From Limisphaerales bacterium (GTDB lineage: Bacteria > Verrucomicrobiota > Verrucomicrobiia > Limisphaerales > BOG-1460): DNA of 49,992 nucleotides. A model generated the notes under the pieces. That model had not been told where the DNA came from and ran no database searches. It saw nothing but the letters and a program-made list of their open reading frames with translations. Where the stretch lies: assembly GCA_003159675.1 (NCBI GenBank), contig PLQC01000040.1, positions 34,087 through 84,078 of the forward strand, read 5' to 3'. Both the position numbers and the translations under genes were made by a program. Below, piece by piece: positions 1 through 47,735 of the stretch (its first letter is position 1; each line of letters begins with the position of its first letter).

Positions 1-363
1 GTCAGGTTCACCGTCTGCAGCCCGGCGTTCTCGTTGATCGTCAGGTTGGAAATCGCGTTCAACGTCGGGGGCTGGTTGACCGCGTTGACCGTCACCGTGA
101 ACGTCTGCGTGACAATGTTATTGCTCGCCCCGCCGTCATTGACCGTCACTGTGATGGTCGCCGAGCCGTTGGCATTCGCCACCGGCGTGAAAGTCAGCGT
201 GCCGTTCGTCCCCGGGCTTGTGTAATTGACGGTGGGATTGGGGATCAGCCCGGTGTTGCTTGAAACAGCCGTGACCGTCAGCGTCTGAACTTCGTTGCTG
301 GAGCCGGAGGTGATGCCCGTCAGGTTCACCGTCTGCAGCCCGGCGTTCTCGTTGATCGTCAGG
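1..363. repeat. Intragenic domain repeat, period 318 bp (106 aa)
   Basis: gtcaggttcaccgtctgcagcccggcgttctcgttgatcgtcagg is identical at 1-45 and 319-363. Confidence 0.85.
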
Positions 364-743
364 CCGGAGATCGTATTCAATGTCGGCGGCTGGTTTCCGG
401 TCCCGGTGCTCACCGGCACGGTATAAGAAACCTCGGCCGAATAATCGCTTTCCATGCCGAGGATGTTGTACGCGGTGACCGCGAAGTAGTATGTGGTGCC
501 TTCGACGAGGCCGGAGATCGTGGTGTTCGTCACGTCGCCCACGTCAACGATGTTGGTGTACGTGCGGCTGGCGACACCATAGTAAACCTTATAGCCCACA
601 ACGTTCGTGTCCGGGCTTGGGTCCCAGGCCAACGATACGCTTTGAGTCGCAAATGCATTGGGTTGGGCAAATATCAGACAACCTCCAAGAAGGAATCCAA
701 CAACCGCGCGCCGCACCATATCCCGTACAACAACTCTTTCCAT
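1..743 (-). CDS. Secreted FN3 + cadherin/Ig-like repeat surface protein (runs off the window start)
   Basis: Not in the ORF track. Manual translation from ATG 743 gives a signal-peptide-like N-terminus, an FN3 signature (VSLAWDPSPD...GYKVYYG...GLVEGTTYYFAVTAYN), then repeats starting NQPPTLN.IS.LTINENAGLQTVNLT. Confidence 0.85.
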   Translation of the reverse strand, partial: MERVVVRDMVRRAVVGFLLGGCLIFAQPNAFATQSVSLAWDPSPDTNVVGYKVYYGVASRTYTNIVDVGDVTNTTISGLVEGTTYYFAVTAYNILGMESDYSAEVSYTVPVSTGTGNQPPTLNTISGLTINENAGLQTVNLTGITSGSSNEVQTLTVTAVSSNTGLIPNPTVNYTSPGTNGTLTFTPVANANGSATITVTVNDGGASNNIVTQTFTVTVNAVNQPPTLNAISNLTINENAGLQTVNL

Positions 744-1256
744 CAGGGCGTGGAGCCACGCATAAGGGCTGCCAACGCCGCCGCGAGGACGAAACATCCG
801 GCAAAATGTCAGCCCTCCTTGTCGCGACAGGAGTTCTTATCGGGAAATATCGCCATCATTAACGTTGCCGATGAGAAGACCCCGCGATTGCTCTCCCGTC
901 GGCATGATGGAGAACTATTTTGTCGTCGGCCAAACGAGGATCTTCGATGAAACCTTTCAAGACAGCCGCTGCCCTTATGTCTTAAAAGGGAGCAAACAAA
1001 TCTGTTAGAATCTCTAATTCACAATATCAATTGAATGCGTCACTCTTCACAACGTGTCTCCACTTTGCAACCCGCCGGCCTGCTCATTGCATGATGGGAA
1101 TGGTGAGTTGAAAAAAACCGGGAATCACGAGTCATGCTCCCATTGCGGCGGCGTTCATGGAAGCGCCGACGTGGCGGAACCACTCGTGATGCGACGGAAG
1201 AGCGCCGATTCCCGCGACGCAGCGAGTCGCGGAAAAGCCGGCGCGGAAAAACTGCT

Positions 1257-1300: not shown

Positions 1301-1376
1301 GGGGTCGTAGCTCAGTTGGTAGAGCACCACAATGGCATTGTGGGGGTCAGGGGTTCGAATCCCCTCGGCTCCACCA
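1301..1376 (+). tRNA. tRNA-Ala(GGC)
   Basis: Cloverleaf with acceptor GGGGTCG/CGGCTCC (G3:U70), anticodon stem ccaca/tgtgg with GGC, GTTCGAATC T-loop and encoded CCA. Confidence 0.97.
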
Positions 1377-1381
1377 TCCTT
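1332..1381 (+). repeat. attL core (3' part of tRNA-Ala)
   Basis: atggcattgtgggggtcaggggttcgaatcccctcggctccaccatcctt, identical to 9890-9939. Confidence 0.95.
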
Positions 1382-1508
1382 TTCACCCGCAAAAACACTG
1401 CATTTATTCAATGTTTGCAGGCTTTTCGTTGATATTGCCTCACTCTCCATGATGCCGACATGCTGCCAACGTGGTGTCAGTTGATACACACTTAAACTTG
1501 ACAGACAC

Positions 1509-1526
1509 GGGCACTATCGGGCACTA
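1509..1526 (+). promoter_or_regulatory. Putative integrase arm-type sites (GGGCACTA x2)
   Basis: gggcacta-tc-gggcacta; the same octamer pair recurs at 9821-9840 inside the other end. Confidence 0.65.
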
Positions 1527-1533
1527 TTGGGGT

Positions 1534-2685
1534 ATGAAAGTAAGGAAATTGGACCGCCGGGACAAAGGATACACCCGCGTTGAGTGGCTTCTGGACTACT
1601 ACGAAGGCCCGAAGCGCATCCGCAAGTGGTATAAATCCAAGGGCCAAGCTGAGGCCGCCGCCGAGGAATTGAAGCAGCAGCATCGGCACGCCGGCCAATC
1701 CTGGCTTGAACTATCACCCGAGGAACGCAACGGCCTGATGTTGCTCCACGCCGAGGCCAGCCGGGAGAACGTCACGTTGCGGCAGATATGGGAAGCATTC
1801 AAAAGCGGGAAGCTGGACGCGACACCAGTTCAACGGCGCACACTCCGGCAGGCCATTGACGAAACGATCACCGCCAAGACAAACGAGAATCTCCGCGAAC
1901 GATACGTTGCCGAGTTGGAGAACTACCTTGAGAAATTCTCAACGGGTCGCATGGAGATGTTCATTGACCGCCTGACCGTGGCGGATGTCGAGACGTGGTT
2001 TGACGGTCGCGGCGAGGCATTGAGCACCCGCAAATCCAACCTCGGCAGGCTTTCATCCATGTTCGATGTCTGCTGGCGACGCGGCTACCTGAAAGAAAAT
2101 CCGATTCTCAAAATCACTCCACCGAAACCGGAGGACAAACCGCCGACGATCCTGACGGTGGACCAAGCGGTCAAGCTGCTGAACGCCTGCCGAAAGTATC
2201 CGCGCATGGTCCCGTGGCTATCGTTGGGAATGTTCTGCGGTATCAGGCCAGAGGAAATCGAAAAGCTGACATGGGGTGACGTGGACGCAAAAAACAGGCA
2301 CGTAAAGATCGAGGCCGCCGCAAGCAAGGTCCGCCGCCGCCGAATTGTGCCCTTGAATGATACGGCACTCGCCTGGCTCAAGATCGGCAGGACCGGGAAA
2401 CCCTCGGCCATGATCGCGCCGAACCGTACCACGCTCCGCAGGCACCGCAGGGCGATGAGTGAAGCCGCAGGCATCGAATGGACGCAAGACATCCTGAGAC
2501 ACACCGCCGCTTCCTACTTGCTCCAACGTCACGAGGATGCAACCAAAGTTGCTCACTGGCTGGGGCACTCACCGCGCACCCTCGAAACGAAATACAAAAA
2601 CATCGTGACGCCGGCGGAATGCAAAAAGTTTTGGGCGTTGACCCCGGACAAAGTGAAAACGGAGATGAACAATGAAGCCCAATAA
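1534..2685 (+). CDS. int: Tyrosine recombinase / phage integrase
   Basis: Catalytic motifs GIRPEE, ASKVRRRR, DILRHT, HWLGHS and TKY; adjacent to attL. ATG 1534 preferred over GTG 1471. Confidence 0.93.
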   Translation: MKVRKLDRRDKGYTRVEWLLDYYEGPKRIRKWYKSKGQAEAAAEELKQQHRHAGQSWLELSPEERNGLMLLHAEASRENVTLRQIWEAFKSGKLDATPVQRRTLRQAIDETITAKTNENLRERYVAELENYLEKFSTGRMEMFIDRLTVADVETWFDGRGEALSTRKSNLGRLSSMFDVCWRRGYLKENPILKITPPKPEDKPPTILTVDQAVKLLNACRKYPRMVPWLSLGMFCGIRPEEIEKLTWGDVDAKNRHVKIEAAASKVRRRRIVPLNDTALAWLKIGRTGKPSAMIAPNRTTLRRHRRAMSEAAGIEWTQDILRHTAASYLLQRHEDATKVAHWLGHSPRTLETKYKNIVTPAECKKFWALTPDKVKTEMNNEAQ

Positions 2686-3370
2686 TCGAAACACGCTGAA
2701 TAAAAAGATTGCGGCGGCAAAAACGATCGGCGAAAAGTGGTTGATTGCATTAAATGGGGGCGAGCCGCCAACCGAGATTCAGTTTCTAGCAAGGCAAGCG
2801 ACCGCGCTTCGGAAATCGTTGAACAACCCGAACCAACCTGCCACACATGGGCCGGGGTTTCACACAACCTGCGAGCAATTAAATCAACGATTCACGAGAC
2901 TTCTTTTCCCCGCGTTACTGGAAGATAACCCTGCGCCGTTTGCGGAGCTACTCGAAGCAATGGCAAAATCGCGCCGCTCTGAATGCCGCGACTTGAACGA
3001 ATTCATTTCCAGAATGGAAGAGTACTCGAAGCAGCCTGTGAGTAAAAAGGAGTCGGGGCGAAGGCTCCGGCTCGCATTGCTGGGTCTTTGGCCGGACCAA
3101 CTTCTTTCGATGGGCTCTGTGATTAAAAGCCTCAGTGAACGGGGATTGTATAAGTTGGACGAAAGACACGTGCGCCGCACCATGCGGGAAATCGACGTGC
3201 ATCTACTGAGGCCGGGGGAATGCTTCATATACCGCAAGAATGGCAGGACTGTCCGCACCTTGAGAGTAAGCAAAAGCGGAAAGCCCATCGCCACGGGAAA
3301 GAGTTGGGAGGAATTGAGAGCCGAACCCGCTTTTACCTCCTGGGCCCAGCGACCTAAGGCGGACAAATAA
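2672..3370 (+). CDS. Hypothetical protein
   Basis: 232-aa ORF overlapping the int stop; no family recognised. Confidence 0.7.
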   Translation: MKPNNRNTLNKKIAAAKTIGEKWLIALNGGEPPTEIQFLARQATALRKSLNNPNQPATHGPGFHTTCEQLNQRFTRLLFPALLEDNPAPFAELLEAMAKSRRSECRDLNEFISRMEEYSKQPVSKKESGRRLRLALLGLWPDQLLSMGSVIKSLSERGLYKLDERHVRRTMREIDVHLLRPGECFIYRKNGRTVRTLRVSKSGKPIATGKSWEELRAEPAFTSWAQRPKADK

Positions 3371-3430
3371 GCCCCCAAGTTTTTCTTGTCGTCCATTACG
3401 TGCCGCACCAACTGCGCCTAATGTGGGCGC

Positions 3431-3628
3431 ATGTTAGATCGAAAACGCAGCAAATCGCCACCGACCAAGTTTGACTTGGACGCGGTCCTCACCCCGCCGG
3501 AAGCGGCGCAATTTCTTCGGATAACCACGCGAACACTCTTGAAAAATGTTCGCCTCGGGAAAGTGGCGTGCATTCGCGTGAATGACCGCGTGCTCCGGTT
3601 CCACGCACGGTCACTGATTGGGGCATAA
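3431..3628 (+). CDS. Excisionase/AlpA-like helix-turn-helix protein
   Basis: LTPPEAAQFLRITTRTLLKNVRLGKVACIRVNDRVLRF is a typical HTH_17 pattern. Confidence 0.85.
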   Translation: MLDRKRSKSPPTKFDLDAVLTPPEAAQFLRITTRTLLKNVRLGKVACIRVNDRVLRFHARSLIGA

Positions 3629-3682
3629 ACAATTTCGCCGCGGTCCTGGACGGAATCACGCGGCGAAGAAACTAACGATTTG

Positions 3683-4345
3683 ATGAACACTAGCATTGAA
3701 ATCCGGCAAACGTCAACCACTCTTACGCCGTCCGAATCCTCGGACCTGGCCCGGAATGAATCCACCATTGAGCACGGGCTCAAAAACTTTATTGAAGTAG
3801 GTTCCGCCCTACTGGACATCAACGACCGGAAACTTTACCGGCAGACCCATCCCACGTTCAAGGACTACGTCGAGGAGAAATGGAAGATGTCGGTGCGGCG
3901 GGCATATCAGCTATGTGAAACCGCCGAGACTTTGAAGGCGCTTCCGCCGAGTGTGCAAAATTTTGCACAAACGGAATCCCATGTTGCCGAGCTGTCCAGA
4001 ATCCCACCTGAAAAGCGGGTTGAGGTTTTGAACAGGGTTGAGACAAAAGCGAAGGCCACCAGGAAGAAGGCGACCGCGAAGGACATTCGTGAGGCCGCCG
4101 CCACCAATACATCAGAGACATCAGAGTTGGTTGATCGGCCAAAGTTTCGCGCCGCCACCAAGAGCAAGCGCAACGCTGGAAGATGGTGGTGGACGAAATC
4201 GACGACGCCTGAGAATCGTGGTCAGTTTCTTCTGAATTGGATTTTTTGTTCAGACAATCCCGTTGTAGTTCCGAGCAAAGCCGAGTTGCGGCAGAGAATC
4301 GACAGATGGATGGACGATGCGGTCAAGGAGGCCAAGACCCTATGA
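3683..4345 (+). CDS. Phage-type hypothetical protein (DUF3102-like N-terminus)
   Basis: IEHGLKNFIEVGSALLDINDRKLYRQTHPTFKDYVEEKWKMS resembles a common phage protein motif; family assignment tentative. Confidence 0.7.
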   Translation: MNTSIEIRQTSTTLTPSESSDLARNESTIEHGLKNFIEVGSALLDINDRKLYRQTHPTFKDYVEEKWKMSVRRAYQLCETAETLKALPPSVQNFAQTESHVAELSRIPPEKRVEVLNRVETKAKATRKKATAKDIREAAATNTSETSELVDRPKFRAATKSKRNAGRWWWTKSTTPENRGQFLLNWIFCSDNPVVVPSKAELRQRIDRWMDDAVKEAKTL

Positions 4346-5145
4346 TCATCCAACCGGATTTTTTGGAACACTGGAAAACGCGCGCGCTAGTCGAATTGAC
4401 CGGCGACGAAGCGGCACCCCTGGCCGTGATTCGGTTATGGGCACATTGTCAGAGCTCAAGGCGTGGATTTTTCCCGGACATGACGCCAGCGCAACTCGCG
4501 TCGATCTGCCGGTGGCGTTGCAAACGAATTTCCTGCCACACGGCGTTGATCCGGGCCGGATTTGTCGAGAAACTTTCCCCGAAAGGCTTCATGGCCCATG
4601 AGTGGGCAGAGCATAACCGCCAACTTTTGCAAAAATGGGAAGCGGGGAAAAGTGGAGGCCGACCAAAAATATGCGCGGATACTCAAGAACAAACGGATTC
4701 TGAGAAACCGACCGATAACCGACCGATAACCGTCCGGGAACTAGAACAGAACAGAACAGAACAGATAGACCAGAGAGATAAGAACAGAACTGATGAACCA
4801 GAACTGACCGGACCAGAGCCGAAGGATGGAAACGGCGGTTCGGGTTCAAGTTCTCCTTTTTCAGCAATTGAGGTTTGTTCTGGTTCTGGTTCGGTTCTCG
4901 AGGCCGTTTCGGATATCGCAAGCGGGATGACTGCTGGTTCATATCCCGATGGCGGTCGTCCTACGGTAGAGCAGGTCCGCGCCTTTATGGACGGCCTTTT
5001 TCGTGGTGCGGGTGAGTTTGCCGAGAAATGGCACGCGACGATGACACGCCAGCAGTGGAAGGACCAGCGTGGGAAGCCTGTTCACAAATGGCGAGACCTG
5101 GCGTCGCGATGGGCCAGCGCATGTGAACGGAAGAAGCGGGGATGA
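4342..5145 (+). CDS. Phage replication initiator / replisome-organiser-like protein
   Basis: AAGGAGG RBS and ATGA overlap at 4342. wHTH-like N-terminus ending GKSGGRPK, a repeat-containing linker and a C-terminal PTVEQV...W...GKPVHKWR motif. Confidence 0.7.
   Translation: MIIQPDFLEHWKTRALVELTGDEAAPLAVIRLWAHCQSSRRGFFPDMTPAQLASICRWRCKRISCHTALIRAGFVEKLSPKGFMAHEWAEHNRQLLQKWEAGKSGGRPKICADTQEQTDSEKPTDNRPITVRELEQNRTEQIDQRDKNRTDEPELTGPEPKDGNGGSGSSSPFSAIEVCSGSGSVLEAVSDIASGMTAGSYPDGGRPTVEQVRAFMDGLFRGAGEFAEKWHATMTRQQWKDQRGKPVHKWRDLASRWASACERKKRG
4706..4765 (+). repeat. Iteron-like repeats inside the replication gene
   Basis: AACCGACCGAT x2 plus a partial third copy (4706-4736), then AGAAC x4. Confidence 0.65.
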
Positions 5146-5149
5146 AGAC

Positions 5150-5368
5150 ATGAGCGACCGCGAGCCAACACCAGCGCCACCAGCGCCGACAGCCGATGTT
5201 CCAGTGTCCACCGTCACGATTACGTTGAGGCCGGAGCCGGGTAACTGGTCGTCCCCACCGGTTGCACGATTAAAGCGGCTCCTAAAAGCGATCAAGCGCG
5301 GATATGGCTGGACCTGCGTGAATATCCACACCAAACAACCAAACCCAAACGAAAGAAACGAACCATGA
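5150..5368 (+). CDS. Small phage-type hypothetical protein
   Basis: 72 aa, ITLRPEPG...RLKRLLKAIKRGYGWTCV; directly follows the rep gene. Confidence 0.65.
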   Translation: MSDREPTPAPPAPTADVPVSTVTITLRPEPGNWSSPPVARLKRLLKAIKRGYGWTCVNIHTKQPNPNERNEP

Positions 5369-5541
5369 ATGCCGAAGAAACGACTTTCCGCAAAGCGGCT
5401 TGGCAAACGACTGTCCGCGCTTTGGCCGCATCTACAGAGCACGCTGGCACTTGCGTGGAAGGAACCCGACCGCAACGGGGTTTTACTGTTCACACTCAGA
5501 ACCAGCGATGCGGGCTTTGCGGGGTTTCAAACAGCCTTTGA
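5365..5541 (+). CDS. Small hypothetical protein (58 aa, CxxC near C-terminus)
   Basis: ATGA overlap with the previous ORF; MNAEETTFRK...QRCGLCGVSNSL; below the ORF-track cutoff. Confidence 0.4.
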   Translation: MNAEETTFRKAAWQTTVRALAASTEHAGTCVEGTRPQRGFTVHTQNQRCGLCGVSNSL

Positions 5542-5578
5542 AAGATAACATAACATGCTTATATGCAAATAGATACGC

Positions 5579-5640
5579 GGGTCCTCTCGGCACCTTTTGC
5601 CGATCGGGTGGACCATGCCGAACTCAGCTCGTAGTGATAA
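5579..5640 (+). other. Putative cos packaging region (lambda cosQ-like GGGTCCT)
   Basis: GGGTCCT at 5579-5585 in the intergenic region ~60 bp upstream of the Nu1-like gene, the position cos occupies in lambdoid phages. Confidence 0.5.
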
Positions 5641-5647
5641 AAAAATT

Positions 5648-6121
5648 ATGAAATCTCCCCATAAAACAGCATTGGAATCGAAGGAACAGCACGCCGGCAT
5701 TCGCTGGACAGTGAACGCCGCGGCATCCGAATTTTCGCATGATCGGCGCACTATTCGCCGCCGACTTTCAGCTGCCGGTGAGCAAGCCGGGCCGGACGGA
5801 AAGTTCTCAACACAGCAAATATGTCGCGCAGTGTTCAACAATCTGGAACTGGAGCGCACGCGGTTGACCCGGGCGCAGGCCGACATTGCGGAAGTCCAGT
5901 GTGACGAGCTCTTGCGCAATTGGCTTCCGCGTGACGGGGTAATCAAAGTGTGGAACGGCACGCTTGAAATAATGCGCGGCATCATTTCGAGCCGCAGCGA
6001 CATACCGGAACATCTCAAAGCTGACTTGCTGCGCGACCTGCAACCGCCGGACGAGAGAGAATACCTCGCCGACGCGCCTTTTACAGAGCAAGAGGGTCCA
6101 CTTTCGAGCCCAGAGGAATAA
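5648..6121 (+). CDS. Terminase small subunit, lambda Nu1-like
   Basis: N-terminal HTH (AAASEFSHDRRTIRRRL) plus ERTRLTRAQADIAE, closely resembling the Nu1 segment ERHRLTRAQADAQE. Confidence 0.75.
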   Translation: MKSPHKTALESKEQHAGIRWTVNAAASEFSHDRRTIRRRLSAAGEQAGPDGKFSTQQICRAVFNNLELERTRLTRAQADIAEVQCDELLRNWLPRDGVIKVWNGTLEIMRGIISSRSDIPEHLKADLLRDLQPPDEREYLADAPFTEQEGPLSSPEE

Positions 6122-6124
6122 CCG

Positions 6125-6259
6125 ATGAAAAACTACCAGCGCAAGCGAGGCCGTCCACCGATGACAAGGGACGCCCGGACGATTGCCCAGCTCAAAAAGC
6201 TCATGCGCGGCTTGCTCGAGTACCACTTGGGGCGCCGGCGCACCTGGATAAAACGATGA
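6125..6259 (+). CDS. Small basic protein (44 aa, KRGRP motif)
   Basis: Fills the gap between TerS and the HTH gene, with an ATGA overlap at 6256. Confidence 0.5.
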   Translation: MKNYQRKRGRPPMTRDARTIAQLKKLMRGLLEYHLGRRRTWIKR

Positions 6260-6540
6260 CTATGGAGCACCAGGAAATTGCCCGCGTCTGGCGCGAGGAG
6301 TGTACGCCCATGGCTCGCGCCGTCGGAGTTTTGGTAAGGGATGATCGGCTCGACAAAGAGATTGCGGAAATGCTCAAACTCTCACCGGAGGGCGTGCGGT
6401 ATCACATGCGGGCTTTGAGAAAAAAGTTTGCCTGCCGGTCGCGCGTGGGAGTCGCAGTTGCGGTTGAGAAAGTCGCGCACACGCTACCAAAAACGGCATC
6501 TATGAAGTCTGCCCAAACGGTGGAAAACTTTAAGCCATGA
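6256..6540 (+). CDS. LuxR-type helix-turn-helix regulator
   Basis: DKEIAEMLKLSPEGVRYHMRALRKKFACRSR. Confidence 0.82.
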   Translation: MTMEHQEIARVWREECTPMARAVGVLVRDDRLDKEIAEMLKLSPEGVRYHMRALRKKFACRSRVGVAVAVEKVAHTLPKTASMKSAQTVENFKP

Positions 6541-7628
6541 ATTCAAATTCTGAAAGTTCTGTAATCACTCGCGACGAGCAAAAAAAGTACAGTTTGGCCC
6601 GCTACATTCGCGGCATGTTGCCGGGCAGTTATGAATCCGCCACCCTCGAAAATGAGATTGGACAGCGAATGTCCGGGCGTGGCGACGGGGTGAAGCTGTC
6701 GCGCCCCGTTCCGATGGAGATTGTTTCTCCGGCACTTGCAACGCGCGACCTTTCTGTGGGAAATTTTGGATCTGGCGGGGCACTGGTTGAGACGTCAGTC
6801 TCAGATGAGATCGTACCATTGCTGCGAAATGTCCCGCTCTGTCGCCGGCTAGGCGCGCGAATTTTAACTGGCCTCTCTAGCAACGTCTCATTGCCCAGAC
6901 AGACCAGCCCGTCCACCGCTTCAAACATGCCGGAGACTGGGACTGTTCAGACGTCAACCCCTTCGGTTGACCAGCTCATTTTAACTCCCCATCGCGTTTC
7001 CGTATCAGTGGTTTTCAGCCGGCAATTAATTCTTCAAAGTTCAGCGGACGTAGAGGCTTTCATCCGAGACGATATAAGCCGTCAAATTAACCTAGCTATT
7101 GACAGCGCAGTTATCTCCGGCGCGGGCGCGGCGGACCAGCCTTTGGGAATTTTGAACACGCCTGGGGTTGGCAGTGTGTTGTTCGCCGGGACGGCCACAT
7201 GGTCAAGCATCGTGGCATTTGAGACTCAGCTCGCTTCTCAAAATGTTTCCGACGATGGCTCAATTGGGTATCTGATGACGCCCACCGTGAAAGGTCGCCT
7301 CAAAACGGTTGCAAAAACTGGCGTGGGGGTTACCAGCGTGGTTCCCATCTTCCTCGTGGGGGAAACGGATAATGGACAAGGCATCTTTTCCGTAAATGGA
7401 TATCGGGCAGGGAGCACGAACCAAGTGCCTGCGAACCTAGTTCTCTGCGGAAAATGGAGTGACGTTGTGATTGGCTTCTTCGGCCAAAATAATGGAATCG
7501 ATTTGATCCTGAATCCATACTCACTTGATATTTCTGCACAGGTGCGCCTGACCTGCCATGTTTTTTTTGACGTGGCCATTTTGCATCCGCAGTCGTTTGT
7601 GGTATCGGCGGACTCCGGGGCACAATGA
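6537..7628 (+). CDS. Phage major capsid protein, HK97 fold
   Basis: GGALVET, FSRQLILQSSADVEAFIRDDI...IDSAVISG.G...QPLGILN and DVAILHPQSF motifs. Confidence 0.92.
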   Translation: MNSNSESSVITRDEQKKYSLARYIRGMLPGSYESATLENEIGQRMSGRGDGVKLSRPVPMEIVSPALATRDLSVGNFGSGGALVETSVSDEIVPLLRNVPLCRRLGARILTGLSSNVSLPRQTSPSTASNMPETGTVQTSTPSVDQLILTPHRVSVSVVFSRQLILQSSADVEAFIRDDISRQINLAIDSAVISGAGAADQPLGILNTPGVGSVLFAGTATWSSIVAFETQLASQNVSDDGSIGYLMTPTVKGRLKTVAKTGVGVTSVVPIFLVGETDNGQGIFSVNGYRAGSTNQVPANLVLCGKWSDVVIGFFGQNNGIDLILNPYSLDISAQVRLTCHVFFDVAILHPQSFVVSADSGAQ

Positions 7629-7646
7629 TTCAACCAATAACTGAGT

Positions 7647-7865
7647 ATGCCAAGCTACTGTGAACGAGTAACCGACCGCGCGACGTTGAGAATGCTCCGC
7701 TCCGGCGCGCGACCGCGAAAGCGCGGGCTCCGTGACCCGTTTTGGAAATCAGGGGACGTGAACACTCAAAAAATCATGGGTAAGTTGCACATTGCATTTG
7801 CCAAGGTGAATTTGGGAAACCCTCATGCTGTGCCCGTGAGCGTCAGCCAACCGCCTTTTCAATGA
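7647..7865 (+). CDS. Hypothetical protein
   Basis: 72 aa, first of a chain of ATGA-coupled ORFs. Confidence 0.5.
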   Translation: MPSYCERVTDRATLRMLRSGARPRKRGLRDPFWKSGDVNTQKIMGKLHIAFAKVNLGNPHAVPVSVSQPPFQ

Positions 7866-8113
7866 GTGAAAACGCAGCAGCGGAAGCGACCGAGGCCGAG
7901 CTTTTGGCCGCGTGGTTCATCGAGCGCGCGCAGCATTTCGACCCGGCGATGCTGGGGGGTATGCAACGGAATGCGGCGGGTTGCCCATTCGCTGTAGAGC
8001 ACGGCGACAACCACGAGTTTGTGACGATGCAGCGTGATGTATTTTTGAAGCTGGTGAAATCAGCCAGCCAACCGCAGATGCCACCCGATAACCATTTCAC
8101 ACGCGAACCATGA
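7862..8113 (+). CDS. Hypothetical protein
   Basis: 83 aa, ATGA overlaps on both sides. Confidence 0.6.
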   Translation: MSENAAAEATEAELLAAWFIERAQHFDPAMLGGMQRNAAGCPFAVEHGDNHEFVTMQRDVFLKLVKSASQPQMPPDNHFTREP

Positions 8114-8412
8114 ATCACCACCCCGCGCAAAAACATTTGGCCGCAGCCTGCGCTTTCGTTGGTGTCCTCAACGAGCACGCAGAATTGCGCGGTAGAATTG
8201 ACCGGACGCGCGCGGCACTGTCCGAGGCGAGCGCATTGCTTGACGGCGACCAATGGCAGCAACACCTGGCCTTGGGGCACGTGAACCGAGTCAGCGACAA
8301 CTTGAAGAAGTTGGAACATATCGTGTCAATCATCGAGGACAATCTCTGTGCAGGACTCACGGAAATTCGACAGTCCCGCGATTTGCAGTCGGAAACTTGG
8401 GGAGAGGCTTAG
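8110..8412 (+). CDS. Hypothetical coiled-coil protein
   Basis: 100 aa, helical pattern, ATGA overlap. Confidence 0.6.
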   Translation: MNHHPAQKHLAAACAFVGVLNEHAELRGRIDRTRAALSEASALLDGDQWQQHLALGHVNRVSDNLKKLEHIVSIIEDNLCAGLTEIRQSRDLQSETWGEA

Positions 8413-8571
8413 TTTGTTGTTGCAGGCGCGTTATGCTGCGCGCGTCTGCAACCTCACCCTGCCGGGTTCTTTCAAGTTTCCGGCGGGGTTGAATTTAGAT
8501 TTGGCGTCCTTCGTTTCATAGGGACGGGGGACGGGCTGGTTACCCATGCGCGCTAACGGTCGCGTGTGCCG

Positions 8572-8618
8572 AAAAAGACCCGCTCCGGCTCGTTTGCACC
8601 GGGGCGGGGTTCTTTTTT
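8572..8618. terminator. Bidirectional intrinsic terminator
   Basis: aaaaagacccgctccgg...ccggggcggggttctttttt between convergent gene blocks. Confidence 0.65.
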
Positions 8619-8647
8619 CACGGCAGCGCAACTATCACTGCCGATCC

Positions 8648-9016
8648 TTAGACCCTTTCGGCGATGTTCAGAGCGGCGGCGACATCCTCAGCGAGCCCTG
8701 GCGCATCTTTCTCAATAAGCGTCATTACATCATCGAGGGTATCACAGACATCCGCCGTGAACTGGTCGCTCTCCCCCTGCCAGCAGGTAATGCGACCGAT
8801 GCCGACCACGAATATTGCCTTATCGGTTTCATAGATGCTGGCCTTGACCCAGCGTGTTGTGTCGTGTGTCTTTGTTGACCCGGTGAACAGTTCAGACCCC
8901 ATGAATGCGATGGGACGTTTTTCTGTGCGGGTTAATTTCTGCTCCGTGTAGGTTTTCTCTGTGCTCATTTTTATGGTTGCCGGTTTACGATCGGCGACGG
9001 CGCTCTTGGACTTCAA
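8648..9016 (-). CDS. Hypothetical protein (satellite accessory)
   Basis: 122-aa ORF with globular composition, followed by the terminator; start uncertain. Confidence 0.65.
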   Translation of the reverse strand: MKSKSAVADRKPATIKMSTEKTYTEQKLTRTEKRPIAFMGSELFTGSTKTHDTTRWVKASIYETDKAIFVVGIGRITCWQGESDQFTADVCDTLDDVMTLIEKDAPGLAEDVAAALNIAERV

Positions 9017-9220
9017 TGTCCGGTTGCCACTTCGCGCCTTGTGGCTGAGATGACGCTAATCAATCGTTGGGATCGCCTGCAAGCTGATTCACCCCCATGT
9101 AAGGACAAGGGACGGCTCAAACAAACCCAATGGCGGGCAAGCCAGAGGGCATGAATCACAGCCGACCATGGCAAAAGCCGGGGAACAGCCGAACCGGATC
9201 GGGCCATGGTCCGGGCCGCT

Positions 9221-9478
9221 CTACAGCAGGGGCACGCCCAACACTTCGAGCAACGCGGCACTGACCAAGGCCGTCAGGGCTTCGTTGATCTTGAGGCCGC
9301 GGCGGGATGCAACGTGCAGGGCTTCGCTCATTAGCAGGGCGATGAGTTGAGGGTCCAGTTCGATCCAAAGCCGCGTCATTTTGGTTTTACCTCCATCCGC
9401 CTGAAGCGCGGCAATGCTCCGCTCAAGGCCGGGGTGATGGATGATGATTCTCCGAGGGGCTCCGTGTTCCGTGTTCAT
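9221..9478 (-). CDS. Hypothetical protein, possibly ribbon-helix-helix-like
   Basis: TRLWIELDPQLIALL...RGLKINEALTALVSAAL; start uncertain. Confidence 0.45.
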   Translation of the reverse strand: MNTEHGAPRRIIIHHPGLERSIAALQADGGKTKMTRLWIELDPQLIALLMSEALHVASRRGLKINEALTALVSAALLEVLGVPLL

Positions 9479-9820
9479 TGTGTGATTCAATCGAAACCCG
9501 CCCCCGGAAGGCGGAAACCTTGTCGCCACCCCGAATCACCGGGGCAGCTATCCAAGAGCGGGCGATTGACTGTCTCCGAACGGCAAAGGCGGGTGATTGG
9601 TCCGCCAGACAGTTGCCGGGCCACCTTTTCCGCGATGGCCACCAGGACACTACCGCGACGGCGCGACAGCCTGCAAGGCCGAAATCCGCTTCCCTTGCCT
9701 CACCATTCAACGCAGGACGGGCTTTGTTTGCCGGCGAGGGTGTTGATATGGTCCCCGCGATCCTGGCGAGTCCTGGCTGAAGGCGTAGCACGCCGGGCCA
9801 AGACCAAAGAAGGAAACGCC

Positions 9821-9840
9821 GGGCACTATACAGGGCACTA
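9821..9840 (+). promoter_or_regulatory. Putative integrase arm-type sites (GGGCACTA x2)
   Basis: gggcacta-taca-gggcacta about 50 bp inside attR. Confidence 0.65.
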
Positions 9841-9889
9841 AAACGGATCATACCACTTCTAACCTTTAGTGACAGGCACTCACCCCACC

Positions 9890-9939
9890 ATGGCATTGTG
9901 GGGGTCAGGGGTTCGAATCCCCTCGGCTCCACCATCCTT
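9890..9939 (+). repeat. attR core (duplicated tRNA-Ala 3' part)
   Basis: Exact copy of 1332-1381. Confidence 0.95.
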
Positions 9940-36442: not shown

Positions 36443-38683
36443 TCATTTTTCCATCCGTGAAAGCCGGGCATCGAGTGCATCCAAATGCCGGAGGTCGTCC
36501 AGAGCGGATGAGAGTCCGCTAAGCGCCGACGTTGGGCTGGCTGAATCAGGAACCCCGACATTGCCCATCAGGGTCAGTTTTGTGGAATTGGTCAGTTCAA
36601 ATTCCGGCTGGTTCTGATACCAGGCATTGCCCGCCAAGATTAGTTGCAATGGTTGCGTTCCCTTACTCCGAATGATCGTCTCCTTGGGATCGCAGTAAAA
36701 CTGGCTCTGGCCCCAATAAATCTGGCCTTTGTAATCACGGATATCGAACAGCGCGTTCGTCGTGTTCAAATGCAGTTTGGGGGACTGGATGGTGATTCGG
36801 CCCTCGGGTTGCCCCGGCTTCCCGCTTAACTCGGCGACCTGATCGCTTTGCTCGTTGTAAAAATCACCCATCACCACCGAATTGTTATCGCGCACCCGCA
36901 ACGCGGGCTTGGATGCCGTGCTGATCCGGGTCAAAAAACCAATCAACCCATCCCGCCCCCCGTCTTCCATTTGTTGAAAGTTGGATGTTGAATGTTGAAT
37001 GTTGAATGTTTCCCCGCCCTCCACCGTGACCGTGCCTTCGTAGGAAGTCCGGAAGAGCAACTGCGCCTGCGTGCAATCAGTTATCCGCAGATTCCCCTGC
37101 ACATGCCGGGCATCCACCACGCAGCCGGCTGGCAGATTCAAAAAATGGATGCCGTGTTTGTCCGGTGCCTTCTGATACATTCCGTAGGCATAAACCCCGT
37201 CCAAAATCACCCGGCAGGGCTTGCCATCCGGGCTGGTGACCAACACATCATCGCCATGATTCATTTCACCCCAGTCAGACATGCCGACCACAAGGTTGGC
37301 CAAAGTGACGTTCACTGCGTCGGAGATGGTTGCCATCGGTTGCCCGGCTTCCCCGTGCCAAACCAGTCCGCAATTATAACCGCTGCCTTCCACCTTGTAA
37401 TTCTCCCCCGAAATCGTCAGCGTGCGCGACACCCGGTAGCGTCCGGTCGGGAGATAAGCAACCGCCCCGTGACCGCACTGGCGGGCCGCGTCAATGGCAC
37501 CTTGGATCGCCGCCGTATCATCGGTTTTGCCCTCGCCCTTGGCCCCGAAATCATGCAACGCGTCAAATACTTTGCCCGACACCAAAACCGTTTCCTGAAG
37601 AAACTGCTGGCTGGCGGATCTCACCACCCGGGTGGATGGGCCGGCGGGGATTTCATAAATGTGTCCTACCTGCGGATTGCGCACCAATTGGTCCACCAAG
37701 GCCGGCTGATTGTGGCTCAACAAAAGTTTTTGAACTCCGCCGCCCAACTGGAGGGCGGCTTGATTGGTCGCAGCGGGAGTGAAGACACAATCGAACATCA
37801 GCACCGGTCCGCCCTGAAGATACAGCGCTGGCTCCCGGCCCGTCCAGAGCGCCACCCGGCAATCCTGAATCGTCAATGGCGCGATGGTGGCTTCTTGGAC
37901 AAACCGCCTGGAACCGATGGAGGTGCAACGCCGGATGGAACTGCCGTGCTCGCCTTGAACCAGAAAATCCGTGTCTCGGCTGTTCTCAAAATGGGAGTTG
38001 CGGGCGTAAAAGTTGGATTTGTGGGACAACACGCCCGTGCCACAGTTGCGGAATTCGCAGCCATCAATGGTGTTGTCATAATCATTGAACGTCAAAAAGC
38101 CCAGCGCCGTGCCGCAATTGTCAAACAGGCAGTTGTGGTAGAGGATTTCTGCCGAGGCAACCTTTTGCCCGTTGCCCACCCGGATGCCGTAACCGGTAAA
38201 ATTGCGAAACGCCTCATGCTCGTGGAGAATCTCGGTCTCGAACCGTTTTCCCGCCGCATGATCAAACCCCACCGCCGCCCGGTTTTGGCCATCCCAGCTC
38301 AAGCCCACATAACGGCTGTAGGCAATGCCATCGCTCCAGAACATCGCCCCGCCAACCGGCCCGTCCCAGACCAGCCGGGTATCGCGTCCATGACCAATGA
38401 CCGCCGACCCCGTGCCCTCACCGTGAAACACCAGCGTCTGGGTGATCCGATACGTGCCGGGTGGCAGATAAATTGTTTTGCCGTTCGACCCGCGATTGAG
38501 CGCCGTCTGGATCGCCGTCGTGTCATCATTGGTGCCATCACCGACTGCTGCTGGATTAATATCCTTTTTTATGTTGATCCAATCCGATCGCGGCTGCCAG
38601 TCCAGCCGCGGGATGTCCGGCGTGGCCGCCCAGGCAGCAACTGCAAAAAGGGCAACACCAAACCACGCGGTAAGTTGACTCAC
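36443..38683 (-). CDS. Secreted GH55/pectate-lyase-3-like beta-helix protein
   Basis: Two GDG..DDT.AIQ.A...YLP.G.Y motifs. Start uncertain; the ORF-track extension overlaps the upstream pseudogene. Confidence 0.85.
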   Translation of the reverse strand: MSQLTAWFGVALFAVAAWAATPDIPRLDWQPRSDWINIKKDINPAAVGDGTNDDTTAIQTALNRGSNGKTIYLPPGTYRITQTLVFHGEGTGSAVIGHGRDTRLVWDGPVGGAMFWSDGIAYSRYVGLSWDGQNRAAVGFDHAAGKRFETEILHEHEAFRNFTGYGIRVGNGQKVASAEILYHNCLFDNCGTALGFLTFNDYDNTIDGCEFRNCGTGVLSHKSNFYARNSHFENSRDTDFLVQGEHGSSIRRCTSIGSRRFVQEATIAPLTIQDCRVALWTGREPALYLQGGPVLMFDCVFTPAATNQAALQLGGGVQKLLLSHNQPALVDQLVRNPQVGHIYEIPAGPSTRVVRSASQQFLQETVLVSGKVFDALHDFGAKGEGKTDDTAAIQGAIDAARQCGHGAVAYLPTGRYRVSRTLTISGENYKVEGSGYNCGLVWHGEAGQPMATISDAVNVTLANLVVGMSDWGEMNHGDDVLVTSPDGKPCRVILDGVYAYGMYQKAPDKHGIHFLNLPAGCVVDARHVQGNLRITDCTQAQLLFRTSYEGTVTVEGGETFNIQHSTSNFQQMEDGGRDGLIGFLTRISTASKPALRVRDNNSVVMGDFYNEQSDQVAELSGKPGQPEGRITIQSPKLHLNTTNALFDIRDYKGQIYWGQSQFYCDPKETIIRSKGTQPLQLILAGNAWYQNQPEFELTNSTKLTLMGNVGVPDSASPTSALSGLSSALDDLRHLDALDARLSRMEK

Positions 38684-38804
38684 AAACTGAAACCTCTGCA
38701 ATATTTCGATTTCATTGTAGCGGCAGCCAGTAATCGCCGCGATTTGCACGCACATCTCTATTGTTCCCCGGCATTCAGCCAAGTCATCAACCATTGATTG
38801 ATGC

Positions 38805-39225
38805 TCATTCTCGTCGCAATAGACGTCCAACACGCGTAGCCAACCGGTGTGCCGGGCTTTCCACAACACCGAAAAATAAATAGCTAATCGCCATACAAGC
38901 CATAAGTTGCATGAACCATGCAACCCATGAATTAAGACGGGCCATGGTTTATAGTTTAGCCAGTAGAATAAAAATAGGGACGTGACAAAGATAAAGGGAA
39001 AAACTCCATGTCCTAGCGCTTTCGAGGCTGCGGTAGGGCGGATGCGTTTGGAACCAAATTAGCTCTTTTCGTAGCCAAACAAAGCATGCAATCGCAAAAA
39101 CGTTTAGAGTCCAAGGATACCGGACCGAGCCATGAAAACGCAAGATGGAACAAACACTTGCCAAACTCCAAATAATACACCGGCAACACCAGATGGACCT
39201 AAGAGGTGGCAGACTAGTCCATGAG
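38805..39225 (-). pseudogene. Acyltransferase-3 pseudogene, C-terminal part
   Basis: WSFSLYLCH, an in-frame TAA at 38949-38951, then ISYLFFGVVESPAH. Confidence 0.78.
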
Positions 39226-39229
39226 ACTT

Positions 39230-39970
39230 TCATGTAGTTGCCACAGATGTTTTGGCAACCACAAGCATATTCTGTGATAAAATATGATGAGTAAATCCTG
39301 TTTCCGCAGTCAATAAGAGGCGTGAGGTCGCCGTTAGTAATTCCCACAGAATTCTTCTAATAAGGCTTTTAGCACCATGTATGACCGGCTTATCCTCAAA
39401 GCATTTGACATGGTGGAAACCACAGGCATTTAATGCCTGCTCAATGGATCGTGAGGTAAAGCAGTTTTCATGGGTTAAATCCCCGTAACGTATTCTCATG
39501 CCAAACAAACCTTCAGCATTGGGAACGTGGATAATTATAATCCCATCGTTTCTTAATGAAACATAAACTTGATCCAGCAAAGCAAGCAATTCCCCTTTTT
39601 CTAAATGCTCAAGAATATCCATTAAAAATACAACATCAAAGGCTTTGTTTTGCTCTTTTAGAAAACTGCCCATGTCAAGACAGGTGGCGCTTTTGATCCC
39701 GAGGTCATGTGCCAACTTGATTTGTTCCGGCGATATATCCACTCCTTGGACGTTTTTAAAACCCAATTGCTGCAAGCAATAAATCAAAGCTCCATGTCCA
39801 CACGCCAAGTCAGCTATAACAATATTTTTGCTTTGGAAAAGGTGTTTCTTTATGAGTTGTTTGTAAAATGGATAGTTGCTGATTGCCAGATTAGTCTCTC
39901 GATTAATCTTACCGGCTGCTTGCCCGGTCGAAATATAACCGTCATACAAACGTTTTTTCCAGTCATTCAT
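39230..39970 (-). CDS. Class I SAM-dependent methyltransferase
   Basis: ADLACGHG, GVDIS, DILEHL, VPN, DLTH. Confidence 0.92.
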   Translation of the reverse strand: MNDWKKRLYDGYISTGQAAGKINRETNLAISNYPFYKQLIKKHLFQSKNIVIADLACGHGALIYCLQQLGFKNVQGVDISPEQIKLAHDLGIKSATCLDMGSFLKEQNKAFDVVFLMDILEHLEKGELLALLDQVYVSLRNDGIIIIHVPNAEGLFGMRIRYGDLTHENCFTSRSIEQALNACGFHHVKCFEDKPVIHGAKSLIRRILWELLTATSRLLLTAETGFTHHILSQNMLVVAKTSVATT

Positions 39971-39986
39971 TTCATTGTAGATTTAT

Positions 39987-40125
39987 TTACTTCTCCCGAT
40001 TGAGAATGTCTAACACCGGTGCAAACTGAACCTCGTAATTCCACTCCGTCAAAATGCGTTGCCGGCCCTGTTCGCCCATTTTGCGGGTTTCTTTGGGTTG
40101 CTCCGAGAACCAACGCAAGGCCTTC
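39987..40125 (-). pseudogene. C-terminal remnant of a glycosyltransferase
   Basis: KMGEQGRQRILTEWNYE is a typical GT-B C-terminal helix with no upstream body. Confidence 0.65.
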
Positions 40126-40827
40126 TCATGCTGGGTGTGTAATGAAAAAACACTTAAAGCTTGGGGAAGGGGCAGAGGTTGAAAACGATGGTGCCAGCAT
40201 ACATCCAAGCAGCCAGCATGGCAAGCCAACAACCCATGTCAAAAGCGGTCCAAAAGCATGGTATTCTTTGGCTTCCGGGTGCAAGCATGTGATTAACAAT
40301 GCAATAGCATTAGCAGCAATTACAAGGCGCCACCCAAAATATCGGATGAATGGAAATAGAATCGGATACAACGTATAATAAATCAGTTCAGCGACGAGGC
40401 TCCAAAGGATTGAGTCGTAGAATTCCACAACTCCTGACGACTTTCAGAGGAGGACGAGAACAAAAGCAAATATGAAGGGAAGCCCAATTCTTAAGTAGCG
40501 CCTTGCTAGAAAGGCAGCCGGCATTTTTGGCGCATATCTGAATGGGAAATGGATGTAGAAACCCGATACTACAAAGAATACGACTACCTCAGCCACACCG
40601 CAGAATAAGTTGTTATAGAAACCGCGCAGGATTTTCATAACGGCCGTATTCCCAGCCAGATGGTCCGACAATGGAATAAACCAAAAATGGGAAAATACCA
40701 GCCATAATGCAAAAACAAAACGAATTGAATCCAGTCCCGCAACTCGGTAAATCTTAGTCTTAGCGGCTTGGCTTTCGGCAACCTTGCCGCCAACTATCTG
40801 ATTATGCGTAAACACTTCCGGTATCAA
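40126..40827 (-). pseudogene. Acyltransferase-3 pseudogene, N-terminal part
   Basis: GLDSIRF, VFFVVSGF, RRYLRI, an in-frame TGA at 40444-40446, then WSLVAELIYY. Confidence 0.82.
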
Positions 40828-40851
40828 TTCTTTTCGAAATGTGAACTTGTT

Positions 40852-42411: not shown

Positions 42412-42525
42412 AAAACTTTCGCTTGTGAACCCTTCCCCAATGGCAAGTTGCGCGGCCTGAATAAAATTGGTTGACGTAGATTGCGCGGAATGCAACTCGG
42501 CCAGATCGTTTGCCGTCTCGTTACT

Positions 42526-43581: not shown

Positions 43582-43612
43582 GGCGGTGGACCGCAATTCG
43601 GGTGACGGCAAT

Positions 43613-44512: not shown

Positions 44513-44589
44513 TTTTATCAGGTTACGACTGGATTTGATTAATCCGCATGAGTTTCAATTCAACAGCCGACCGTCACAATCCATGCGGA

Positions 44590-46767: not shown

Positions 46768-46808
46768 AAGTCCTGATTAGTTTTTACGGTCGAGAACGAT
46801 TTGAACAT

Positions 46809-47732: not shown

Positions 47733-47735
47733 AAT

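Follow-up and report, generated by a model that had tools for sequence, protein, structure and literature searches.

In the SatelliteFinder scheme, a phage-inducible chromosomal island (PICI) is modelled by an integrase, a regulator (alpA, merR or stl), pri-rep, capsid morphogenesis and terS, which encodes the small terminase (TerS), and the model forbids tail, holin, portal and head-tail connector or adaptor components (PMC10085698). Islands with all five components, called 'type A' PICIs, number 375 in that survey, 97% of them in E. coli (PMC10085698). Among Gram-negative PICIs, EcCICFT073 is packaged as multimers in full-size capsids, and PmCI172 of Pasteurella multocida encodes a major capsid protein (MCP) homologue and makes small capsids (PMC6092414). 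The Ccm protein of SaPIbov5 replaces the capsid pentamers of the helper and redirects capsid size and shape, giving small capsids (PMC8569155), and the capsid-forming PICIs (cf-PICIs) have additional genes for a portal, a protease, a head-tail adaptor/connector, the large terminase (TerL) and an HNH protein (PMC10085698, PMC10690885). The text of the SatelliteFinder survey makes no mention of Verrucomicrobia (PMC10085698). We describe here an island of 8.6 kb from Limisphaerales bacterium, a member of the Verrucomicrobiota (assembly GCA_003159675.1), located in a stretch of 49,992 nucleotides of contig PLQC01000040.1 (positions 34,087 to 84,078) that is referred to as the window. The island is most likely a helper-dependent phage satellite of the PICI kind. 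Its features, with E-values in brackets, are as follows.

Positions 1301 to 1376, plus strand: tRNA-Ala(GGC), found by ARAGORN, anticodon at 1334-1336; the integration target, its 3' part rebuilt by the element.
Positions 1327 to 1381, no strand: attL, a 55-nt repeat copy from the anticodon stem-loop to 5 nt beyond the tRNA 3' end.
Positions 1471 to 2685, plus strand: tyrosine integrase (PF00589, 1.7e-16; phrog_1, 2.6e-41), opening at GTG 1471; the true start may be ATG 1534.
Positions 2672 to 3370, plus strand: open reading frame (ORF) of 232 aa directly after int, with no family in Pfam, PHROGs, NCBIfam or PADLOC.
Positions 3431 to 3628, plus strand: excisionase/AlpA-like helix-turn-helix (HTH) protein of 65 aa, regulator or Xis (PF12728 HTH_17, 1.2e-4; phrog_25665 excisionase, 4.1e-5).
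Positions 3680 to 4345, plus strand: phage-type protein of 221 aa, possibly DNA-binding, 36% identical over 204 aa to L009:5594-6295.
Positions 4342 to 5145, plus strand: replication initiator or replisome-organizer-like protein, a weak assignment (phrog_9474, 6.7e-6; phrog_3926 'replication initiation protein', 2.9e-4).
Positions 5146 to 5596, no strand: rep-TerS stretch, with short ORFs only (5069-5368, 5365-5541, 5369-5548), which have no family matches.
Positions 5597 to 6121, plus strand: Nu1-like TerS (phrog_57, 2.9e-5; hhalign).
Positions 6256 to 6540, plus strand: small LuxR/GerE-type HTH protein (PF00196, 9.1e-7), translationally coupled to the capsid gene.
Positions 6537 to 7628, plus strand: HK97-fold MCP homologue (PF05065, 1.8e-29; phrog_617, 5e-57).
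Positions 7647 to 8412, plus strand: three coupled small ORFs (72, 83 and 100 aa) 3' of the capsid gene, with no significant match in Pfam, PHROGs, NCBIfam or PADLOC.
Positions 8648 to 9016, minus strand: accessory ORF of 122 aa, with a weak match to TIGR04342 (EXLDI family; 1.4e-4, 22.1 bits, cut-off 32).
Positions 9885 to 9939, no strand: attR, the second 55-nt repeat copy, a partial tRNA 3' half.

Set against the SatelliteFinder model as its description gives it, the island is of the PICI type by layout: it has an integrase, a capsid homologue and a TerS, and none of the forbidden components was found. A candidate for the regulator is the 65-aa HTH_17/excisionase-like protein (1.2e-4, below the cut-off), and one for the replicon is the protein with the phrog_9474 match (6.7e-6), with clear primase-helicases in related elements. 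The sequence-only reading had proposed a distinct satellite type with an initiator-type rep in place of a primase. This is not supported, since the layout is that of the PICI model, the replicon is interchangeable within the family, and EcCICFT073 and PmCI172 already carry capsid homologues without a portal or TerL (PMC6092414). In its general plan (an integrase, an HTH protein, a replicon, a small regulator, a capsid homologue and small ORFs, about 9-11 kb in all and devoid of portal, TerL, connector, tail or holin genes), the island resembles the Gram-negative PICIs. In the annotation of CFT073, EcCICFT073 occupies about 10.9 kb and comprises an integrase, an HTH protein, a primase, a single-stranded DNA-binding protein, a PerC regulator, an MCP of 352 aa, a decoration protein and small ORFs. 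This MCP belongs to the lambda gpE type (PF03864), and no PF05065 match occurs in the CFT073 chromosome, whereas the island MCP is of the HK97 gp5 type (PF05065) and derives from phages with a protease::MCP fusion. The island also differs in having a Nu1-like TerS, none being annotated in the EcCICFT073 region, in having no decoration-protein gene and, unlike the E. coli and Pasteurella PICIs, in residing in a tRNA gene of a peat member of the Verrucomicrobiota. The hijacking genes were acquired independently, from another phage lineage, in a phylum with hardly any described elements of this sort.

The other described elements are further removed. SaPIbov5 resembles the island in encoding a homologue of the HK97-fold capsid protein of its helper without a portal or terminase motor; unlike the island, it is a Firmicutes element of unrelated sequence, and for the island MCP a role in the shell is presumed. 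SaPIbov5 uses the cos site and terminase of its helper and is not known to encode a TerS of its own. The cf-PICIs share a capsid gene and TerS with the island, in which none of their portal, protease, adaptor/connector, TerL and HNH genes was found. PICI-like tycheposons are small tRNA-integrating elements with a tyrosine recombinase, Xis, a primase/helicase and a phage packaging gene, and occur in viral-fraction metagenomes; they are said to carry 'either a terS or MCP' (10.1101/2020.12.28.424599), whereas the island family carries both, a comparison made on the published description of their layout only. Some VEIMEs are integrated in Verrucomicrobia, and most, as described, have no capsid gene (10.1101/2022.07.26.501625), in contrast to the island. 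Three cyanobacterial loci in our collection (L036, L044 and L061, from Synechococcus and Prochlorococcus) contain capsid genes of 545-565 aa, with no GpA-type TerL or portal in the flanks that were fetched; their capsid proteins have a long protease-like N-terminal part and fall elsewhere in the MCP tree than that of the island. These loci are possibly the PICI-like tycheposons with an MCP that the literature describes. A keyword search of open-access text found no description of the present satellite family, and the supplementary tables of the VEIME and tycheposon studies could list similar elements.

All assigned genes of the island lie on the plus strand (Pfam, PHROGs and NCBIfam searches). 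Five true ATGA stop/start overlaps are present, between the 221-aa protein gene (g4) and rep at 4342, at 5365, between the LuxR-type gene and the MCP gene at 6537, at 7862 and at 8110; the ATGA at 2672 is no such overlap. The co-oriented and often ATGA-coupled run of int, xis-like, rep, TerS-like, LuxR-HTH and capsid genes described by the sequence-only reading is borne out, as is its account of a TerS and a capsid gene without portal, TerL or tail: among the 18 ORFs tested, Pfam, PHROGs and NCBIfam gave no portal, TerL, protease, tail or lysis family. An island encoding its own capsid protein and a terminase subunit might be thought a minimal virus, or a producer of particles like gene transfer agents, that needs no helper. 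With 0/18 ORFs recognizable as a portal, large terminase, protease, tail or lysis gene, and with the largest ORFs lacking a family, of 232 and 221 aa, too short for a portal or TerL, such self-sufficiency is hardly conceivable.

Assignments within the early half of the island vary in quality. The integrase scores 7.9e-18 against the XerD-like family TIGR02225, far under its cut-off. The HTH_17 match of the 65-aa protein reaches 22.7 bits (Pfam cut-off 27), and TIGR01764 gives only 0.013. The counterpart of the 221-aa protein in L009 (L009:5594-6295) sits just 5' of the primase of that element; in the Atlas the 221-aa protein was placed among viral hypothetical clusters, and its resemblance to ParB-HTH/DUF3102 is a lead only. 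For the rep-like protein, Atlas neighbours with Lin1244_N or Phage_rep_org_N (score 0.93-0.94) are likewise a lead. ORFs of 179-231 aa hold the position of the 232-aa ORF in L009, L099, L120 and L121, and tblastn at 1e-4 detected no homology between it and them. The 5146-5596 stretch is a candidate place for ori and/or cos. A search for iterons or a cos site between rep and TerS gave only a single 14-nt direct-repeat pair (5378 and 5405), which may be due to chance and is no evidence for either. Small ORFs also lie 3' of the capsid gene in L099, L116, L120 and L121. A scan for promoters and terminators gave nothing above shuffled sequences (promoters 3 against 3.9 expected; terminators 18 against 12.6).

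The boundaries of the island are exact. A repeat search and alignment delimited an att pair of 55 nt, 98% identical with one mismatch at the 5th base, of which 1332-1381 equals 9890-9939 perfectly over 50 nt; the start-to-start spacing of attL and attR is 8,558 bp. It is the sole long repeat pair around tRNA-Ala, and a perfect 50-nt repeat within 14 kb could not arise by chance. ARAGORN, the Rfam tRNA model (RF00005 at 1301-1373, 66.6 bits) and the repeat search agree with the earlier claim of 50-bp perfect att repeats that start at the tRNA-Ala anticodon loop. For an empty-site comparison, the phosphotransacetylase (pta) gene of the right flank was searched in 40 relatives. In a genome of the same genus (G001), the left flank, tRNA-Ala and the 11 bases found next to attR on its right side in the window adjoin one another and the island is absent; about 2.8 kb of unrelated DNA lies there between the tRNA-Ala site and pta. 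The island is also absent from a genome of the same family (G003), in which pta begins about 1.1 kb after tRNA-Ala. The island is a bounded element, which a tyrosine integrase has inserted site-specifically in the 3' half of tRNA-Ala(GGC), and its GC content is 55.5%, against 59.8% for the genome. The additional DNA of G001 (L092:1482-4255) stands in the place of the 105 bp between attR and pta in the window, from which it is absent, and the tRNA-Ala site may be an integration hotspot. The closest named pta homologues, at up to 96% identity, belong to metagenome-assembled genomes of Verrucomicrobiota/Verrucomicrobiae (two lower rows are from Paceibacterota and Dongiaceae), in line with the Verrucomicrobiota host that had been proposed from the letters alone.

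Related elements of the same size were found elsewhere. With an alignment of the short form of the MCP, we fetched 60 loci from genomes, 80 from metagenomes and 79 from IMG/VR (L numbers), and the first 140 were probed by tblastn with the island proteins and with the TerS, TerL, gpW and portal of the full phages L010, L012 and L013. The latter three have lambda-like head modules, with a Nu1-type TerS, a GpA-type TerL, a gpW-like connector, a portal, a protease::MCP fusion and tails. Seven loci (L009, L015, L099, L116, L120, L121 and L137) consist, according to PHROGs, of an integrase, in some cases Xis, a replicon, TerS, a small protein, a short MCP and small ORFs, with no TerL, portal, protease or tail match. 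The replicon is a primase-helicase in L009, L099, L120 and L121 and RepO-like in L116. Between TerS and MCP, the small protein resembles an HTH protein in 5/7 of these elements and in L109: it matches GerE in L116 and L109, as in the window, is HTH_24/MarR-like in L009, L099 and L121 and matches HTH_32 weakly in L015; those of L120 and L137 have no Pfam match. Where ends could be defined, the sizes and insertion sites are as follows.

Window element: 8,558 bp, tRNA-Ala, att repeats.
L120: 8,553 bp, tRNA-Met, 49-nt exact repeat.
L099: 8,943 bp, tRNA-Leu, 38-nt repeat.
L116: 8,253 bp, tRNA-Ser, 41-nt repeat.
L137: 8,172 bp, circular contig, 80-bp terminal overlap.

The search thus returned a recurring form of about 8-9 kb, whose absence the sequence-only reading had named as a ground for refutation: the closest capsid relatives are in similar small islands, not in full prophages. 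This bears on the possibility that the island is a decayed remnant, a deletion derivative of a lambda-like prophage in which int, TerS and the capsid gene were kept by chance. The MCP and TerS are indeed homologous to those of full phages (41% and 43% for L010; 45-46% for L097, L102 and L139), and some relatives in the MCP family are full prophages. Yet the same compact layout, with intact ORFs, recurs in at least nine distinct elements, the att repeats are perfect over 50 nt and the island is absent from a genome of the same genus. The N-terminal truncation of the MCP is clean and common to 14-15 clade members, unlike a random break, and the rep/primase and small HTH genes are specific to the satellites, sitting where phages carry TerL, gpW and portal. 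Together with dN/dS ratios of 0.22-0.27 (see below), the recurrence largely refutes this explanation, which we consider very improbable. In IMG/VR, the sole close short-MCP match (L175) is the same element as L009, giving no independent or virome-specific support. In L136 and L188, two related copies, about 83% identical, lie some 8.0-8.6 kb apart, and look like tandem satellites or a concatemer-like assembly. Three variant small islands (L109, L174 and L014) have a capsid gene followed by a tape-measure-like protein of 450-638 aa; the capsid protein is short in L109 and L174 and protease-fused in L014, all three encode an integrase, L014 also a primase, and no TerS match was found. L109 has repeats of 127 and 95 nt 11.4 kb apart, adjoining tRNA-Lys.

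The capsid protein connects these islands with a particular group of phages. It scores 103.4 bits against PF05065 (cut-off 24.2) and 82.7 bits (2.7e-23) against TIGR01554 (cut-off 27.5), aligning to positions 99-382 of this HK97 model. In phrog_617, a protease::capsid fusion family, only the C-terminal capsid half is covered (positions 268-623 of 626), and in a MAFFT alignment the N-terminus of the short MCPs falls at about residue 270-305 of fused proteins of 630-669 aa. An AlphaFold2 model built with 22 sequences (pLDDT 65.5) matched 8gta_A (4.2e-19) and HK97 proheads in Foldseek, with probability 1.00. Compared with its phage relatives, this HK97-fold MCP homologue lacks the protease and most of the scaffold. 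Its closest homologues in the protein collection have about 350-390 aa and are 94%, 85%, 51% and then about 45% identical; more distant ones have about 600-630 aa and an S78 protease domain. Among cultured phages, the closest relatives are only 31-34% identical (Synechococcus S-CBS1/3, Pseudomonas Persinger, Rhodobacter RcCronus, Vibrio VP882 and others), and the genomes of these phages, of 29-44 kb, are four to five times the size of the island.

The small terminase points to the same lambda-like lineage. Over 86 aa, it shares 43% identity with the ORF directly 5' of TerL in the phage locus L010. A two-sequence TerS profile matched an alignment of satellite and phage TerS proteins with an hhalign probability of 95.7% (E 9.9e-9), and that alignment includes the protein of L012, which is Pfam Phage_Nu1 (PF07471) at 6.1e-11. 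The AlphaFold2 model of TerS shows a winged HTH followed by long helices. In a wide VIA search, the model reached a Z of at most 6.8, a value in the range regarded as common, with MerR-type HTH domains among the matches; a Z of 6.0 to 6hn7_B, an entry from a study of packaging redirection by an E. coli PICI, is among ties.

In a quick tree of 101 capsid domains, from which hits shorter than 300 residues, those with internal stops and those identical in the C-terminal 375 residues had been dropped, the window MCP falls in a group of 15 rows that are all short (SH-aLRT 91), beside 15 long fused proteins (99). Ten of these 15 neighbours adjoin TerL, gpW or a portal, and the other five have too little flank. 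In a more careful tree of 48 rows, the enclosing clade of 34 MCPs is robust, with support of 100/99. Within it, a TerL, gpW or portal match was found for 0/9 short-MCP elements with at least 3 kb upstream and for 10/11 informative long protease::MCP rows, the exception being L127. The nine short elements include L120 and L121 (for the identical copies L100 and L119); seven were checked with PHROGs, and L105 and L114 by the tblastn panel only. One change, as a single origin of the short MCPs would require, was reconstructed in only 6% of bootstrap trees. Outside the 34-row clade, short MCPs occur again beside full-phage proteins (L015 with L025; L174 near L012 and L163), a recurrence that suggests repeated capture. 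Eleven long-MCP loci, including the cyanobacterial L036, L044 and L061, have no TerL or portal match with the tblastn panel.

Between L095 and L099, dN/dS was 0.22 for MCP, 0.27 for TerS, 0.25 for a 224-aa protein and 0.48 for the HTH protein; by these codon comparisons within one pair, MCP and TerS are under purifying selection in the satellites. In the order of the host, 11 of 301 sampled species genomes, including that of the window, contain an MCP relative at E<=1e-10. One of them (G138) has a short MCP, a primase and a TerS-like gene on a contig of 5.8 kb, and two others (G214 and G013) encode long fused MCPs adjoining portals, which shows that phages of the helper type occur in this order.

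The state of the island in nature was followed in public sequence data. Its sampled words are fully present in 14 peat-metagenome runs, many of which may be source data. In Logan assemblies, the island is one contig of 8,568 nt (1352-9919) with ends inside the repeats, and in two DNA runs its depth equals that of the flanks (23.8 against 25.4 and 11.2 against 11.7). No attP or attB joint across or around the island was found in the Logan contigs of four runs (two DNA and two RNA), which says nothing about excision because these contigs drop rare variants. Loose ends after the tRNA (1375, 1376 and 1382) were examined as a possible empty site and set aside, as they did not match G001 and probably stem from tRNA-Ala flanks of other organisms. 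Two RNA libraries gave patchy, low-depth contigs over int, the 232-aa ORF, TerS/HTH and the end of MCP; the deepest, at 8388-8998 (47.4, X15) and 8784-9029 (25.9, X16), cover the minus-strand ORF of 122 aa. These contigs may reflect DNA carry-over, and the 122-aa ORF is possibly a gene expressed in the integrated state.

The equal depth, with no amplified state seen in the two DNA runs, would also suit an interference or defence island, mobile by integration only, in which MCP and TerS act mainly as decoys that poison phage head assembly and packaging and so protect the host population, while the island itself is not transferred efficiently. Capsid homologues of satellites are known to interfere, and Ccm blocks phage reproduction (PMC6092414, PMC8569155); a dominant-negative effect is conceivable for a capsid protein that has neither scaffold nor protease. 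Against this, the sizes of 8.1-8.9 kb, a replicon of their own, purifying selection on TerS and the occurrence at four tRNA sites in several phyla point to packaging-mediated transfer, and the PADLOC search of the island gave only two sub-threshold matches, with no defence family above noise. In known PICIs, interference does not exclude transfer. As the sole function of the island, interference appears unlikely.

Several observations weigh against a helper-dependent satellite of the PICI kind. No helper was found in the assembly that contains the island: there is no match to GpA (PF05876), TerL_ATPase (PF03354) or Phage_portal (PF04860), and tblastn detected no relative of the TerL, gpW or portal of L010, L012 and L013. 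At a completeness of 96.7%, this does not prove that a helper is absent. Excision, replication or packaging of the island was not observed anywhere. The rep and Xis/regulator assignments are weak (6.7e-6 and 1.2e-4, the latter below cut-off). TerS has no direct Pfam match at E up to 0.1, and structure searches with its model were only middling (best Foldseek E 0.53, nothing at E<=0.001). The common origin of the short MCPs is weakly supported in the careful tree (54/93 for the 14-row short group, with L119 joining three long proteins). The tblastn panel detects GpA-type modules only: L142, which has a short MCP and lies outside the clade, belongs to a full phage whose protease is separate and whose terminase is of another type. 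The dN/dS values come from one pair of elements only. Taken with the exact insertion, the conserved layout and the homology of TerS and MCP to lambda-like phages, these points leave the satellite reading well ahead in our estimate; judged from its genes and relatives, the satellite is probably real and active, and from the same material we infer a helper and packaging.

The proposed cycle would begin with infection by a lambda-like helper encoding a Nu1-type TerS, a GpA-type TerL, a gpW-like connector, a lambda-type portal and a protease::capsid fusion. The element would be excised by Int and the HTH_17 protein and would replicate from its own initiator. Its Nu1-like TerS would steer the TerL of the helper onto a packaging site of the satellite, probably between rep and TerS, and the truncated MCP would co-assemble with the portal, protease::capsid and tail proteins of the helper. 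Either the heads would become smaller, with room for about 8.6 kb, or satellite DNA would be packaged preferentially; Ccm of SaPIbov5 is the precedent. The LuxR-type HTH protein, coupled to the capsid gene, would most likely be the switch of the late cassette. By our own arithmetic, if capacity is proportional to T^1.5 and a T=7 head takes about 40 kb, 8.6 kb would go into a T=3 head, or a head of full size would take four to five copies. Both modes are known from other satellites, small capsids from PmCI172 and SaPIbov5 and multimers from EcCICFT073 (PMC6092414, PMC8569155). The narrow size range of 8.1-8.9 kb favours a packaging constraint. Going further, we tentatively propose that minimal 'TerS, HTH, truncated-capsid' satellites are old and widespread in soil and peat bacteria (Verrucomicrobiota, Betaproteobacteria and others), with an MCP cut from the protease::scaffold::capsid fusion of the helper that assembles only by co-polymerizing with helper subunits and sets a head of about T=3 for one genome of 8-9 kb. 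This extension is doubtful as it stands; if true, the setting of small heads by a truncated MCP would be a mechanism of size redirection undescribed for any studied satellite.

Other features of the genome (G000) and of the window were noted. A second capsid-bearing island (contig C96:1-17000, L071) adjoins tRNA-Val (3995-4070). It contains genes for an integrase, a CI-like repressor, a protein of 565 aa whose C-terminal part is a PF05065 capsid domain, and a TniB/AAA_22-like ATPase, as well as two large unknown ORFs (700 and 798 aa), with no TerL or portal family match. A third island, satellite-like but without a capsid gene match (contig C22:24000-44000, L276), encodes an integrase, a primase, a TerS, a TerL (Terminase_6N PF03237; phrog_979, 3.8e-148) and a DNA methyltransferase; it has no portal match either, and its TerL is the only one found in the genome. 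With the families probed, the genome contains three satellite-like islands and no complete prophage was found. In the window, 38000-49992 is low in GC (48-52%, against 59.8% for the genome); its genes, for glycosyltransferases, methyltransferases and an acyltransferase/SGNH protein, form a surface-polysaccharide cluster. Adjoining it on the minus strand (36443-38923) is a gene for an 826-aa protein that has pectate-lyase-like beta-helix domains and matches the phage endosialidase N-terminal extension (PF12218, 1.2e-7), a tailspike-like architecture. At 1-395, a 77-nt segment is repeated 318 bp apart with 91% identity inside an fn3-domain ORF (3-797, minus strand), which indicates a protein with internal repeats.

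Work on phage satellites has been confined almost entirely to Proteobacteria and Firmicutes. The present data add a well-delimited, apparently active satellite with at least nine relatives from bacteria of peat and soil, and the phage lineage that supplied their hijacking genes. The same capsid gene is protease-fused in the phages and truncated in the satellites, a clean natural experiment, and since both forms exist, it can be tested how a capsid homologue alone might redirect head assembly. Uncultured environmental bacteria carry PICI-like parasites, which probably influence phage mortality and gene transfer in carbon-rich soils.

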